A stretch of 64,000 bases of DNA from Rubripirellula sp. (GCA_965216875.1 OZ244207.1:6272001-6336000), one strand, 5' to 3'. Positions 28,627 to 34,421 are shown, numbered from the stretch's first letter. Made by a program: numbers and translations. Notes: generated from the sequence alone by a model not told the origin.

Positions 28627-29478
28627 TTAAGGGCCAGGTTTTAGGGGCCAGTTGTCGTCGACGACAATCAACCTCTCGGACTCTCTTCCCTCACTATCTA
28701 ACACCGCAACCATCGAAGCTGATCGGATCGATCCAGGCCTGGCCGGCGACATCGCGTCGATCAATTGCTTGAAGGTTAATGGACGATGGCCCGCGGCGGT
28801 CAACCAAAAGGGTTTGGCAAGCAGCTCAAACCGCGGCGATTCCTCGTCGCCGTCTAACAGCGACAATTCACTTTTGTGCAACCATCGCCCGCCAAGGTGC
28901 TGGCTTGAAGTCATTGCCGGAAGTTTGGCCTTGGTGGTGTGGCCGAACGGTACAAACAGCCTCCCCTTCACCAGCGCCGCTCGTTTGGTTGGCTGAGGGA
29001 ATCGTTTTTCACAAAGCCGCAATTGGTGATTGAAGAGTCGCTCGAGTTTCAGATCCAGACGGTCCTTCGCATTGGGCCCAACCCAAAGGTCGCATTGAGG
29101 ACGCGTTGGCTTAGGTTGAAGAAAGAACTTGACCGCCGTCTCAAGGTGGACGAACTCACCCTCTTCGTCTTCGAACAAAAAATCAATTTCGCCGACCGTC
29201 TTACCTGAACGTATGACTTGATGCTGATGAGCGATCAGCTTGACCGATCGAATCCGCGTCAGCCAATACAGCACCAGGGATTCGAAGTACCTGCCGACGC
29301 GATAGCAGAGACGATCTTGGATGAACTTGCCGAGGTCGGCTCGATCGATGACATCGGGGTCGATCGAGAACGGATCGCTGGCGTCGCAGGTGATCAACGA
29401 GTTGCTGTTAATCGCCCAGGCGAGATCCGCGGCCAATTGATCACGGCGGTCGTCGTCCATGATCACGCTGTGAGACAT
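28627..29478 (-). CDS. DUF1853 family protein (PD-(D/E)xK-like)
   Basis: VGRYFE, GEIDFL, HLETAVKFFL and WVGPNAKDRL. Start moved to ATG 29478 to avoid overlap with the divergent kinase. Confidence 0.75.
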   Translation of the reverse strand: MSHSVIMDDDRRDQLAADLAWAINSNSLITCDASDPFSIDPDVIDRADLGKFIQDRLCYRVGRYFESLVLYWLTRIRSVKLIAHQHQVIRSGKTVGEIDFLFEDEEGEFVHLETAVKFFLQPKPTRPQCDLWVGPNAKDRLDLKLERLFNHQLRLCEKRFPQPTKRAALVKGRLFVPFGHTTKAKLPAMTSSQHLGGRWLHKSELSLLDGDEESPRFELLAKPFWLTAAGHRPLTFKQLIDAMSPARPGSIRSASMVAVLDSEGRESERLIVVDDNWPLKPGP

Positions 29479-29544: not shown

Positions 29545-32500
29545 ATGTTGAATTGGTTGTCTTATCCCTTCGATACCGAAGGATTCCCGCCACGTTGGCA
29601 TTGTGGCGAAGCCTGGCAGGAAGAGCCGTACATCGGATGGCTTCACATCATAAGTGATCTGGCGACGTTCGCCTCGTACTACGCAGTGCCTTGCGTCGTT
29701 GCTTGGTTTGTGATGGGAAAGCCCGAGCGCAAGTTCCCGCCGATCTTTTGGATCTTTTTCGGTCTGGTTTTTTTCTCTTGCGGTAGCGTCCACCTGATCG
29801 AAGCGGGGATCTTTTGGTGGCCGATGTACCGAATGTCGGCGATGCTCAAGCTCGTCACTGCCGTTGTATCGACCATAGGTGTGGTGGTGCTGGCGAGATC
29901 TTTGCCGCGCGCACTCGACTTAAAGACTCCCGAAGAGCTACAGGCCGAGATTGAAGAGCGGCGCGAAGCGGAAGCCAAGCTCGACTTTGAAAAGAACCTG
30001 CTTCACACGTTGATGAATCATCTTCCTGACGCGATCTATTTCAAAGATGCTGATGGAAAGTATTTGCGGGTCAGCCGAGCATTGGCGGACAAGTTGCAAC
30101 TCGATGACGTCGCCGCAGCAACCGGAAAATGCGAATCCGATTTCCTGCAGCCCGAGCTAGCGCAAAAGTTTGTCGAGAGTGACCGCAGGGTCATGATGAC
30201 TGGCGAAACCATCGAAGGTCAGGTTGAACGAGAACCGTGGCGGCGCGGCAATCAAGAACGATGGATCTCGACGACTCGCGTTCCCCTTCGTGATTCAAGC
30301 GGCGAACGTATTGGCACGTTTGGCATTTCTCATGATGTGACCAACATCAAGAACGCAGAAGAACGGCTGACGCGTCTGGCCCAGCAACTTGCACTTCCCC
30401 GTGACGGGGCATCCGAAAAACCGATGCCATTGCACCTGGCCAACTTTGGCCTGCGAGACATGATCTCGTGCGGCAGCGATATCCGCGGGATGGCGATCGG
30501 TCACGAAACACGGCGCGGACTTGATACAGCACTTTCGGAATACTTGTATCAACGCATGAAGGGCAGCGATCGGCAACCCGCGTTCGCATTGGTGCGTATG
30601 TTTCAATCAACCAAGTTTGGCGAGCTGGATGACGAACGCAAGGCCATTGCGACCCGGCTTGCTGGCGGCGCAGAACTCGACGACCAGACGCGGTGCCTGA
30701 CGTTGCAGGGAACGGCGGGGCTTGAGCCCGCGTGGAATGATCGCACGCGATCCAAGTCGCACCGAGTGATCCCGCTTCCCAGCGAGCAAGCGATCAACGA
30801 TCTACCAATGATCGCCCAGTTGCTACGTCAACTCGGATTCAACGTCGATGGTGTGCTTGAAGGACGTATTGAAGCTTCCAAGGACACACGAGCAAACGTC
30901 TTTCATATTGCCAAGGCCCGCGGCTGCGAGTTCATTCCGGATCAGGACGAATTTGTGATTCCGCACGGCATTGAATCGGTCGTTGGATTTGGTGACGTGT
31001 TGCCGAGCGGCGATTTCTTCGCCGTCATTTGTTTTTCGCGGATGCCGATCGATGCCCAGACGGCTGCACTGTTTTCTCACCTTTCCATCAGCACCAAGCT
31101 GGCCCTGCTCGCTCACGAACCGGCAGCCGAAAGAGTCGAGGCCCAGATCATTGCCGTCGATCAATTGATTCAGAATTACGAACATGTGGTGTGTCACCAA
31201 GAATCGAGCTTGCGAAACGCGATGGTCGAACTTGAACAGGCGCGTGATGTCGCCGATGAAGCGAACCGAGCGAAGAGCGAATTCTTGGCCAACATGAGCC
31301 ACGAAATCCGTACGCCAATGAACGCAATCATCGGGATGACCGAACTGGTACTCAGCAGTGATTTGCCCGATACCGAACGCGAATACTTGACGACAGTGCT
31401 TGAATCGAGCGAGTCGCTGCTAAACATCATCAACGAGATTCTCGATTTCTCGAAGATCGAAGCGGGTCGGGTAGAGTTGGATGAAGGCGAACATAACCTT
31501 CGAGATGAAGTCGCCGATATGGTCAAGTCGCTCGCCATTCGCGCGCATCGCAAACAGATCGAGCTGGCCTGCGAAATCGGCAACGATGTGCCCGATTGCG
31601 TTGTCGTTGATGCTGCAAAGTTACGACAGGTGATCCTGAATCTCGCCGGCAACGCGATCAAGTTCACCGAAGTTGGCGAAGTGGTTGTGTCGGTTCAATT
31701 GGAAGGTTTCGAAGGCGACCTGGCTCGGCTCAACTTTTGCGTCACCGATACCGGGATCGGCATCACCCCGCAGCAACAGGTGTCGATCTTCGACGCGTTT
31801 GCCCAGGGCGACGCTTCAACGACGCGACGCTTTGGCGGTACCGGATTGGGACTCTCCATCTCGGCCGATTTGGTTCGTCTGATGGGTGGCCAAATCGAAG
31901 TCAGTAGCCAAGTCGGAAGCGGAAGCACGTTTCGGTTTACGTTGCCACTAAGAGTCGGTGCGAAGAATCAAACTCCGGCGCATCCCGATGCCATCATCGA
32001 TTTGCCTGTGCTTGTCGTTGACGACAACGAAACAAATCGTCACATCCTCGAACAAATGATGTTGACCTGGAAATGCGCTCCCACCATGGCCAGCAGTGTC
32101 TCGTCGGCGATGGAGTTGCTTGAGCAAGCGCAGCGAGACGAAAAACCGTTCTCGTTGGTGGTGACTGACATTCATATGCCAGACCAAGATGGTTTCGATT
32201 TGATCGAGTTGATTCGTGGCAATGCCGATGTTTGCGAAACTCCGATCATCATTTTGACATCGGGTGTCGGGATCGACGACATGCAGCGAAGCCAACAACT
32301 GGCCGTCGCCGCTCACTTGATGAAGCCAGTCAAGCAGTCAGAGCTGTTAGACGCGATCTTGGTCACGATGGGCAACAAATCAGCCGAGTCATCGACGGCA
32401 GCGCGAAATATCTTGGCGAGTGGTCTCGGAACCGAGCGACTGAATTTGCTGTTGGTCGAGGATGGGCTTGCCAATCAGCAACTTGCGATAGGATTGTTGC

Positions 32501-33210
32501 GCCGCTGGGGGCACGATGTTGAGGTTGCCGAGAACGGTGCTGTTGCCGTTGAAAAGCACCGCAACGGCGAATACGACGCGATTCTGATGGACTTGCAAAT
32601 GCCCGTGATGGACGGGTTCGAAGCAACAAAATTGATCCGCGAAGCCGAAGATCGTGATCAGGTTGCCGCGATCCCAATCATTGCGATGACGGCACACGCG
32701 TTGGTTGGTGATCAAGAGCGATGTCTTGCGGCTGGAATGGATGGCTACGTTTCCAAGCCCATCCGCCAAAAGGACCTGTTTGATGCCCTCGCGGCTGTCG
32801 CTCCCATCGACCCCTTGCGATTGACGGGGATGAATCCGGCAGCGAAACCGGTTCAAGCAACAACGAACGAAGAGATGGGCGACCGAGTCGACATGAGTGC
32901 GGCGCTCGAAACGATGGACGGTGACCGCAGCATTCTCGACTCGGTCATCAACGCGTTCCTGCAAGAAGGCCCTAAGTTGTTGGATCAGCTGTTGGACGCG
33001 GCGCAAGAAAAAGACTTCAAGCGATTGCGTCGGTCAGCTCATACCTTGAAAGGCAACTACATGATCTTGAAGCAAGAGAACATGCGGAGTCTTGCAGAGA
33101 AGGTCGAAAAGAATGCGGCCGACGAAAAAGTGGAAACCGATCTGGTCGATCAATTGCACGCTCGATCGAAATCGGTGATGCAACAACTCAAAGCGTTCTT
33201 GGATGGGTAA
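29545..33210 (+). CDS. Hybrid sensor histidine kinase: ETR1-like TM domain - PAS - GAF-like - HisKA - HATPase - 2xREC - Hpt
   Basis: [14 protein letters not shown] (H box), [28 protein letters not shown] domains (VTDIHMP; LMDLQMP) and Hpt AHTLKG. Confidence 0.93.
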
Positions 33211-33321: not shown

Positions 33322-34275
33322 CTAAAGCTCGAGCGCGGCCGCGACGACCGCTTTGGATTTCTCCAAGCCCTCGACACACACTTCCAACGCATCACGTTGC
33401 CAATAGTCGCGGTTGAACAGTTCCAGCGAGAAAGCACCCGCAAACCCGCTGTCGATCAATCCACGGATCAGTTGCGGTAAGGGGCAATCGCCGTCGCCGG
33501 GAAAGACGCGGTCAGCGTCGCCGATTTTGTCCAGCGGGATGTCGCCGGGATAATCGTTCATGTGAAAGCAATGCATGCGGGATGCTTCGATCATTCCCAA
33601 CGATGCAAAGTCATTGCCGCCTTTGTAAATGTGATAGAAATCCGGCAAGACGCAGGCGCTCGGGTGTGCTGCGCCCGTTGCAACAAATGCGAGTTCGCTG
33701 AGCTTGCTCAGTGTGGGCGAGAATCCCCACAGTTCGAGTTGGGGAATCACACCTGTTTCGTCGCCGACTTCAAGCAGCGCACGATACCTCTGGGCGATGG
33801 CTGGCAGCGGTGGCGAAACGCTATCGCCGCGATGCGCACCGACCGGCGGCGCGGCCATCAAGGTTCCGCCGATCGCTTTGACCAATTCCATGTCATGACG
33901 AGCCTGCTTGAGACCCTTGGCACGTTCCCCATCGTCGTCGCTGATCCAATTTGCGAAGCCGATGGCGCTGTCCACCGTTAGCCCAGAGTCTGCGATTTGC
34001 TTTTTCAAGTCGGCAAGTTTGCCACCCTTGTTGACGTAGGCTTCGATGTCGCGAATCCAAGGCTCGATCCCGTCATAGCCTGCTTTGGCAGCGACTTCGA
34101 TTTGTTTGTCGATCGTCAATTCCTGGCCGCGAATCGTACTGGTGTTCAGGGCAAAGCGGACAGGCATTGAGGGGTCTTTCATCGGTGTGGCGGCTTGGAG
34201 TGGAAGTGAAGGAAGGGATGCTGCCGCGGTCATTGCGGAGGCGGCAACCAATAGGTCGCGACGGTCAAGCTTCAT
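33322..34275 (-). CDS. Tat-exported sugar phosphate isomerase/epimerase (AP-endonuclease-2 TIM barrel)
   Basis: DRRDLL Tat motif, AGYDGIEPW, DFYH, HMND, DRVFPGDG and SLELFN. Confidence 0.85.
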   Translation of the reverse strand: MKLDRRDLLVAASAMTAAASLPSLPLQAATPMKDPSMPVRFALNTSTIRGQELTIDKQIEVAAKAGYDGIEPWIRDIEAYVNKGGKLADLKKQIADSGLTVDSAIGFANWISDDDGERAKGLKQARHDMELVKAIGGTLMAAPPVGAHRGDSVSPPLPAIAQRYRALLEVGDETGVIPQLELWGFSPTLSKLSELAFVATGAAHPSACVLPDFYHIYKGGNDFASLGMIEASRMHCFHMNDYPGDIPLDKIGDADRVFPGDGDCPLPQLIRGLIDSGFAGAFSLELFNRDYWQRDALEVCVEGLEKSKAVVAAALEL

Positions 34276-34421
34276 CGTTGATCGGTCTCGAGGCGGGGAT
34301 CGGCAAAGGAAGGACCACCAGATTAGCAAGAATGATCCAGCACGCCGAACGGTCGAGAAAGAAATCGACGAAATTACGCCGGCTACCGCCTTGCCGCTTA
34401 CCGGTGGGTTTTTCAGTGACC

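Follow-up and report, generated by a model that had tools for sequence, protein, structure and literature searches.

Ethylene receptors of plants and bacteria

Seven residues are listed as required for ethylene binding by the Arabidopsis receptor ETR1: Asp25, Tyr32, Ile35, Pro36, Ile62, Cys65 and His69. The etr1-4 allele of this receptor is I62F, a substitution that abolishes ethylene binding; a literature search on I62F, Ile62 or etr1-4 with its residue returned no confirming paper. Published studies describe Cys65, His69, Ile35, Pro36 and Ile62 as essential (PMC6586836), Asp25 (PMC10266040) and Tyr32 (PMC8879215) as likewise needed, and F61A and I62A as reducing binding (PMC8879215). In ETR1, Lys91 is dispensable for copper binding (PMC10266040), signalling by ETR1 is mainly independent of kinase activity (PMC11971883), and Asp25Asn is documented as a natural affinity variant within the family (PMC10266040, PMC11971883). 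Plants carrying etr1-4 are described as insensitive, and proteobacteria and cyanobacteria as possessing ETR1-type domains with a Cys/His/Asp copper site (PMC11819568, PMC10266040, PMC6586836, PMC8879215, PMC6913735, PMC6682694, PMC7700396, PMC11971883); the earlier note on this DNA likewise mentions homologues in these two bacterial groups.

AzoEtr1 of Azospirillum brasilense Sp7 consists of an N-terminal three-helix domain followed by a PAS domain and a histidine kinase; it retains all seven binding residues and a helix 2 of canonical length, and ethylene binding has been demonstrated (PMC11819568). The reference used here is an ORF of 525 aa on an A. brasilense Sp7 plasmid (L088:2477-4051), matched to the published AzoEtr1 by fit and flanked by a release-factor-like ORF upstream and a receiver-like ORF downstream. 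SynEtr1 (slr1212) of Synechocystis and GeiEtr1/2 of Geitlerinema, compared by published description (PMC6682694), place a bacterial ETR1-type domain with a single N-terminal Cys on a multi-input kinase; all seven residues are kept and SynEtr1 also has a cyanobacteriochrome. A further relative is the planctomycete-type group of ETR1_N kinases with an N-terminal RWxCG motif, which constitutes the parent subfamily of the protein described below and shares about 45–55% domain identity with it, together with the motif itself.

That a planctomycete should carry an ETR1-type domain is in itself unremarkable. The ETR1_N family numbers 7,279 representatives at E 0.001; at the level of the phylum 47 of 401 genomes encode the domain, and at that of the family 112 of 401. 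A literature search on ethylene receptors in Planctomycetes gave unrelated matches only, and one on macroalgae and ethylene gave no usable link, both judged by title. Neither the clade described below nor a natural I62F was found in the literature searched, a search that extended to sources other than subscription reviews of non-plant receptors.

A hybrid kinase of Rubripirellula

The window is the whole stretch of 64,000 nucleotides of Rubripirellula sp. that was analysed (GCA_965216875.1 OZ244207.1:6272001-6336000), numbered from its first letter. It encodes a hybrid sensor kinase with the following features.

29545..33210, plus strand: hybrid sensor kinase ORF, 1221 aa, ATG at 29545; ETR1_N - PAS - GAF-fold - HisKA - HATPase - REC - REC - Hpt
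29584..29607, plus strand: N-terminal motif R17-W18-x-C20-G21, conserved in homologues
29632..29922, plus strand: ETR1_N three-helix membrane domain, residues 30-126 (Pfam PF25487, model helices)
29656..29658, plus strand: Asp38, equivalent to ETR1 Asp25, which is assigned to the copper site and His polarisation, paired with Lys91 (PMC10266040); present in 83/83 variant domains
29677..29700, plus strand: helix 1, with Tyr45 (Y32) and Pro49 (P36) kept, Val48 (I35V) and Val52 (L39V) clade-specific
29755..29793, plus strand: helix 2, residues 71-83, with an extra residue between Phe71 and Cys79, Val75-Phe76 replacing canonical Phe-Ile, and Cys79 and His83 as putative copper ligands
29848..29907, plus strand: helix 3, with Lys102 (K91), Thr105 (T94), Ser109 (S98) and Pro121 (P110) kept, Gly112 (T101G) clade-specific
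30001..30345, plus strand: PAS domain, residues 153-267 (PF08448 76.8 bits, PF00989 30.1 bits)
30418..31128, plus strand: predicted GAF-fold domain, residues about 292-528 (model and Foldseek; no Pfam or NCBIfam family match)
31270..31953, plus strand: histidine kinase core, HisKA 576-641 (His586) and HATPase_c 689-803 (Pfam, motifs)
32005..32790, plus strand: two receivers, the first at about 821-940 with Asp875, its limits being estimates based on motif positions, the second at 969-1082 with Asp1016 (PF00072 in two stretches, 147 bits)
32947..33162, plus strand: Hpt domain 1135-1206 (His1166) (PF01627 36.8 bits)

The 1221-aa ORF displays the unorthodox hybrid kinase layout (HisKA-HATPase-REC-Hpt, BarA/ArcB-like), with the phospho-residues His586, Asp875, Asp1016 and His1166 all within intact motifs of one chain, and its scores stay below the BarA, TorS and ArcB equivalog cut-offs. 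The His-Asp-His relay that the earlier note had read in this polypeptide is indeed there, although the PAS domain, the GAF-fold domain and the second receiver had been missed. A profile search of the genome found no other ETR1_N domain.

The N-terminal residues Arg17, Trp18, Cys20 and Gly21 recur in 70 of 71 homologues, the one miss being a truncated record. Cys20, the single N-terminal Cys, is a candidate for an inter-subunit disulfide. Arabidopsis ETR1 has in common with the Rubripirellula kinase the Cys/His Cu(I) ligand set with its Asp-Lys pair, the order binding domain - GAF - kinase - receiver and an N-terminal Cys for a possible disulfide dimer (PMC10266040, PMC6586836). The planctomycete protein differs from ETR1 in having one N-terminal Cys and not two, a His-to-Lys spacing of 19 rather than 22, alterations at I35, L39, F61, I62 and T101, and an extra PAS domain, second receiver and Hpt domain. 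Compared with AzoEtr1, it carries I35V, the helix-2 insertion, the Phe/Ile swap and T101G, and adds a GAF-fold domain, two receivers and an Hpt domain; furthermore, AzoEtr1 has an adjacent response regulator, whereas none is evident among the ORFs flanking this kinase.

Residues 292-528 are, on the evidence of the structural model, a GAF fold. The 237-aa domain is modelled at pLDDT 95, and its best Foldseek matches are the GAF-containing PDE6 and phytochromes (E 2e-4 to 1e-3, 7–12% identity, TM about 0.4–0.6); none of 62 aligned members matches the Pfam GAF models at E 0.1. A total of 66 relatives of this domain were found, 130–415 aa long, many about 240 aa and apparently stand-alone; their atlas clusters are unnamed, with Gemmatimonadota and Myxococcota commonest.

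A DUF1853 gene (28627-29478, minus strand, likely start ATG 29478) lies head to head with the kinase, 66 bases away, and was seen next to the kinase in none of the other loci. Downstream, a TIM-barrel sugar-isomerase-like gene with a possible TAT signal (33322-34329, minus strand) is convergent with the kinase; this gene is a neighbour in 6 of 26 loci. No copper, alkene or regulator gene is common to the 26 neighbourhoods. The genome encodes a copper P-type ATPase. A scan for promoters and terminators gave results at chance level.

Membership of the ETR1 family

The identification of the sensor as ETR1-like, made in the earlier note by eye, holds. Residues 30-126 match Pfam ETR1_N (PF25487) over profile positions 2–97 of 97 at 79–84 bits (83.9 bits, E 1e-23) against a cut-off of 27, and BLASTP aligns the domain to the AzoEtr1 ORF with 34% identity over 138 columns (E 1e-22). 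The three helix peptides that had been quoted are all present in the ORF, and Asp38, Tyr45, Pro49, Phe76, Cys79, His83 and Lys102 stand at the positions given for them. The spacings D38-Y45-V48-P49, C79-H83 and K102-T105-S109-P121 agree with the identities and numbers of ETR1 residues, an equivalence that relies on a published residue table (PMC10266040). The D, Y, P, C, H, K, T, S and P positions and the His-to-Lys spacing of 19 are shared with AzoEtr1.

Conservation of the putative ligands points in the same direction: Cys79, His83 and Tyr45 occur in 71 of 71 homologues and Asp38 in 70 of 71. These figures come from an aligner-based count, which agrees with a domain parser that required Cys-x3-His and Asp/Tyr motifs. 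The comparison supports a true member of the ETR1 family in which the predicted copper site (Cys79, His83, Asp38, Lys102) appears intact.

An AlphaFold2 model of the domain (mean pLDDT 87) places helices at 28-57, 66-88 and 95-123, all hydrophobic in sequence. Searches for a solved relative were negative for the membrane part: phmmer of this domain and of a canonical relative against a PDB copy found none, Foldseek with the membrane-domain model gave a best E of 3.9, and VIA-align a best Z of 7.8, to generic helical bundles. Since no solved membrane domain emerged from the PDB copy searched, arguments about how a Cu(I) three-helix site achieves nanomolar and selective binding of ethylene still depend on models.

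Small three-helix proteins were encountered in four loci (L101, L103, L117 and L115, at about position 251 or 134 of each). They display a Gly-Tyr-Phe helix followed by Phe-Phe-x-x-Cys-Gly-x-Thr-His and resemble remote ETR1_N relatives devoid of the Asp-Lys pair, with profile scores of 7–14 bits only.

Helix 2 and the equivalent of Ile62

The earlier note pointed to Phe76, three residues before the Cys, as a departure from ETR1. A second essential residue is altered as well: Ile35 has become Val48. The residues of the kinase indicate a member of the ETR1_N family that departs from the seven-residue pattern of functional ethylene receptors, as five residues are kept, Ile35 is replaced by Val48, and Ile62 by Phe76 or Val75 depending on the register.

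The register is ambiguous because helix 2 has one residue more than the canonical length between Phe58 and Cys65. The conserved Phe lies eight residues before the Cys in 60 of 66 variant domains and seven before it in 82 of 83 canonical ones; this one-residue insertion between Phe and Cys makes the position of the gap decide which residue corresponds to Ile62. When all gap positions were scored, placement at residue 72 (Phe76 equivalent to Ile62, Val75 to Phe61) tied with placement at 76/77 (Val75 equivalent to Ile62), the scores being 24.39, 24.35 and 24.30, and 300 bootstraps chose the gap positions 171, 115 and 14 times. BLASTP and hhalign both place the gap after Val75, in the register that equates Val75 with Ile62. 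The covariation signal, which is weak as few sequences carry it and the 40–59 pair is lost after correction, leans the other way: the published 60–97 pair peaks five residues before the Cys in both groups (corrected z 3.7–4.3 canonical, 3.0–4.0 variant), and the 39–55 pair moves from ten residues before the Cys to eleven in the variant group. The helix is continuous over 66-88 in the model, as judged by a three-state helix call that is blind to a pi-bulge. On balance, these alignments and couplings moderately favour Phe76 as the counterpart of Ile62. The 'natural I62F' of the earlier note is likely in this sense; its register is made ambiguous by the insertion, and it is not an isolated substitution, being fixed throughout a clade along with other changes.

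A clade defined by a rebuilt layer

The survey of this position in homologues that the earlier note had called for was performed on 285 distinct domains, including the best 150 of the 7,279 family representatives. From the sample were removed one chance pattern match out of 26 (L084) and 17 duplicates out of 166; two of the 150 representatives were left unparsed, P0218 and P0191, a fragment with several odd residues and no His. A Phe three residues before the Cys is found in 84 of 285 domains, a Val at the Ile35 site in 84 of 285 and both in 83, which form a clade. The Phe61 site is Ile or Val in these 83 domains and Phe in 200 of 201 canonical ones, the 101 site is Gly in 80 of 83 against Thr in 191 of 201, and RWxCG is present in 81 of 83 and 182 of 201; given this last figure, the canonical set is skewed to near relatives and its frequencies are not valid for the whole family. 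Canonical planctomycete-type kinases differ from the clade at I35, F58, F61, I62, T101 and helix-2 length. The 39 site is Val in 90% of the 83 variant domains (L39V).

The rest of the site is preserved. The clade retains the equivalents of Asp25, Tyr32, Pro36, Cys65 and His69 in 83 of 83 domains, those of Lys91, Thr94 and Ser98 in 82 and that of Pro110 in 81, the misses being two truncated or frame-shifted records. When 149 domains were placed on a tree, the 66 of variant type formed a single branch within the RWxCG subfamily (SH-aLRT 98, quick search), the tree being built on the same columns as define the clade. Purifying selection is evident over 28 loci: mean pS is 0.75 (saturated) against a pN of 0.22, synonymous codons occur at every key site, and the Phe three before the Cys is present in 28 of 28 loci, encoded by both of its codons. 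The clade is represented in 18 of 401 genomes of the family, four of which also carry a canonical copy. Phe three before Cys79 is the mark of one clade rather than a lone mutation; a unique one-off event is ruled out by its sharing across the 83 members.

Close relatives with names are mostly planctomycetes: 23 of 25 true pattern matches belong to Pirellulaceae or other Planctomycetota, with one from Akkermansiaceae and one from an unnamed bacterium. L073, from an assembly that bears the label Akkermansiaceae (Verrucomicrobiota), belongs to the clade and sits amid Pirellulaceae rows, through either transfer or mis-binning.

A few domains depart from the common pattern. P0186, placed in neither group, has Val at 35, Gly at 101 and the longer helix, yet Leu three before the Cys; P0201 has its Phe seven instead of eight residues before the Cys; in P0182 the variant helix is retained and the loop is shorter by one residue. 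These three would be helpful for ordering the changes. L006 and L007 are of canonical length and show another natural change at the Ile62 site, namely Thr, with Cys-Ala-Asn replacing Cys-Gly-x. At the deepest branch of the clade, P0051 and P0055 join a variant ETR1_N domain to a PAS domain and a methyl-accepting chemotaxis signalling domain (PF00015); each is a candidate copper-dependent gas chemoreceptor.

What the variant domain may sense

The reading that best accommodates these observations, to which we assign a probability of roughly 0.55, is that of a working Cu(I) sensor whose pocket has been compensated and whose affinity has probably shifted, with ethylene or a like alkene as the likeliest ligand. 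By analogy with ETR1, Cu(I) would be held by Cys79 and His83 and tuned by Asp38 and Lys102, midway along the three-helix bundle. In the ancestor of the clade the hydrophobic layer on the cytoplasmic side of the copper may have been repacked as a unit: helix 2 would have gained one residue, probably around position 72, the Phe-Ile that precedes the Cys would have turned into Ile/Val-Phe, and the facing residues would have shrunk (I35V, L39V, T101G), creating room for the Phe. Such a site would most likely bind ethylene or a like small alkene; as the repacked layer would separate the copper from the signalling end of the bundle, affinity, off-rate or coupling should be unlike those of canonical receptors. 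Gas binding would shift helix 3 and the coiled coil that follows, this signal being integrated with PAS and GAF inputs; autophosphorylation of His586 would then be altered, as would phosphotransfer, with a receiver Asp and His1166 as successive relay points and an unlinked response regulator as the final recipient. Against this reading stands the alteration of I35, F61 and I62 throughout the clade, whereas AzoEtr1 keeps all seven residues.

The published ETR1 couplings offer a view on compensation. Among the five most diagnostic sites (35, 39, 61, 62 and 101) there are four of them (35–61, 35–101, 61–101 and 62–101) against 0.25 expected, an enrichment (p 0.0003; p 0.005 with draws restricted to conserved sites) that fades as sites are added (p 0.08 at 8 and 0.24 at 10 in the conserved-only control) and that could derive in part from this clade itself.

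An unlikely alternative is that the copper site has been retuned for another small molecule that binds Cu(I), such as a larger alkene or alkyne, CO, an isocyanide or an organosulfur gas (methanethiol, dimethyl sulfide), with ethylene binding weak or lost. The changes are concentrated in one layer beside the ligand site and are fixed clade-wide, the four genomes out of 18 with both copies are what separate jobs would produce, and a mouse olfactory receptor with a Cu(I) Cys/His site for organosulfur odorants is cited in PMC10266040. However, the gains and losses of volume would about cancel, the site-lining equivalents of Y32, I/T28, T94 and S98 are retained, the 26 loci contain no conserved neighbour gene indicating another ligand, and the keeping of paralogues fits a mere change of affinity equally well.

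Marginally less likely is an ethylene-blind protein that mimics etr1-4 and is locked in one state, the real inputs being provided by the PAS and GAF domains, and the membrane domain acting as a copper- or redox-dependent anchor or dimeriser, or as a sensor of copper loading. Three of the residues that ETR1 needs to bind ethylene are altered, and conserved copper ligands are expected here too. The GAF-fold domain is found in 32 of 83 variant proteins and 0 of 201 canonical ones, a count limited by record length (70 of the 83 clade records are at least 560 aa and some are truncated), and a gain restricted to this clade suggests added inputs; nevertheless, the other 51 members, some of them truncated records, show no such domain. 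It also argues against blindness that the counterparts of Y32, K91, T94, S98 and P110, involved in gas binding or signal transfer and not in copper binding, are as fixed as the ligands, and that two members place the domain on a chemoreceptor.

A decaying or non-functional copy, in which the Phe would reflect drift or a sequencing error, is very improbable and, as regards decay, ruled out by clade-wide conservation: a T run in the helix-2 sequence might conceivably favour error and no other support was found, whereas the 1221-aa frame is unbroken, the relay is intact, the Phe recurs in 28 of 28 loci with both codons and pN is far under pS.

The same phenylalanine outside the clade

An independent check on the compensation proposed above, in its favour, comes from other carriers of the same Phe. 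Metagenomes were scanned for a Phe at this distance from the Cys in canonical context, a context found in 62 of 201 canonical domains; of the 31 matches, 28 were rejected by profile and three are real family members (L108, L113 and L119). Together with P0074, these combine the Phe with a helix 2 of canonical length. In all four Pro36 is replaced by Gly or Ala, as against one of the other 200 canonical domains, and 36–62 is the top-ranked published coupling of I62 (PMC10266040). The four are mutually 27–46% identical and represent two or three origins on the tree; L108 and L113 also have Met at 35. They might be non-binders themselves.

With Val at 35 in the clade and loss of Pro36 in the outsiders, all 87 members seen with this Phe carry a further change on the facing helix, at position 35 or 36. 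As the Phe is fixed alongside changes at positions coupled to I62, the loss of binding in the plant allele is not simply transferable to these proteins. A bolder proposal, possible in our view and distinctly tentative, is that a blinding Phe at Ile62 has been fixed repeatedly in nature, each time rescued or redirected via helix-1 positions 35/36, and that the clade, with its insertion and full repack, would consist of Cu(I) receptors for a non-ethylene gas, or for ethylene over a very different range, feeding kinases and chemoreceptors.

Implications for bacterial ethylene receptors

The clade alters I35, F61 and I62, which alanine scans identify as essential, while conserving the copper site. 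It provides natural candidate second-site suppressors at positions 35, 36, 61 and 101, and some genomes pair canonical and variant paralogues. Either genuine receptors escape the rule of seven residues used to identify ethylene receptors in bacteria, or that rule flags a change of ligand. With its ligands kept and the underlying layer rebuilt, this lineage is a natural test of how the pocket sets gas binding.
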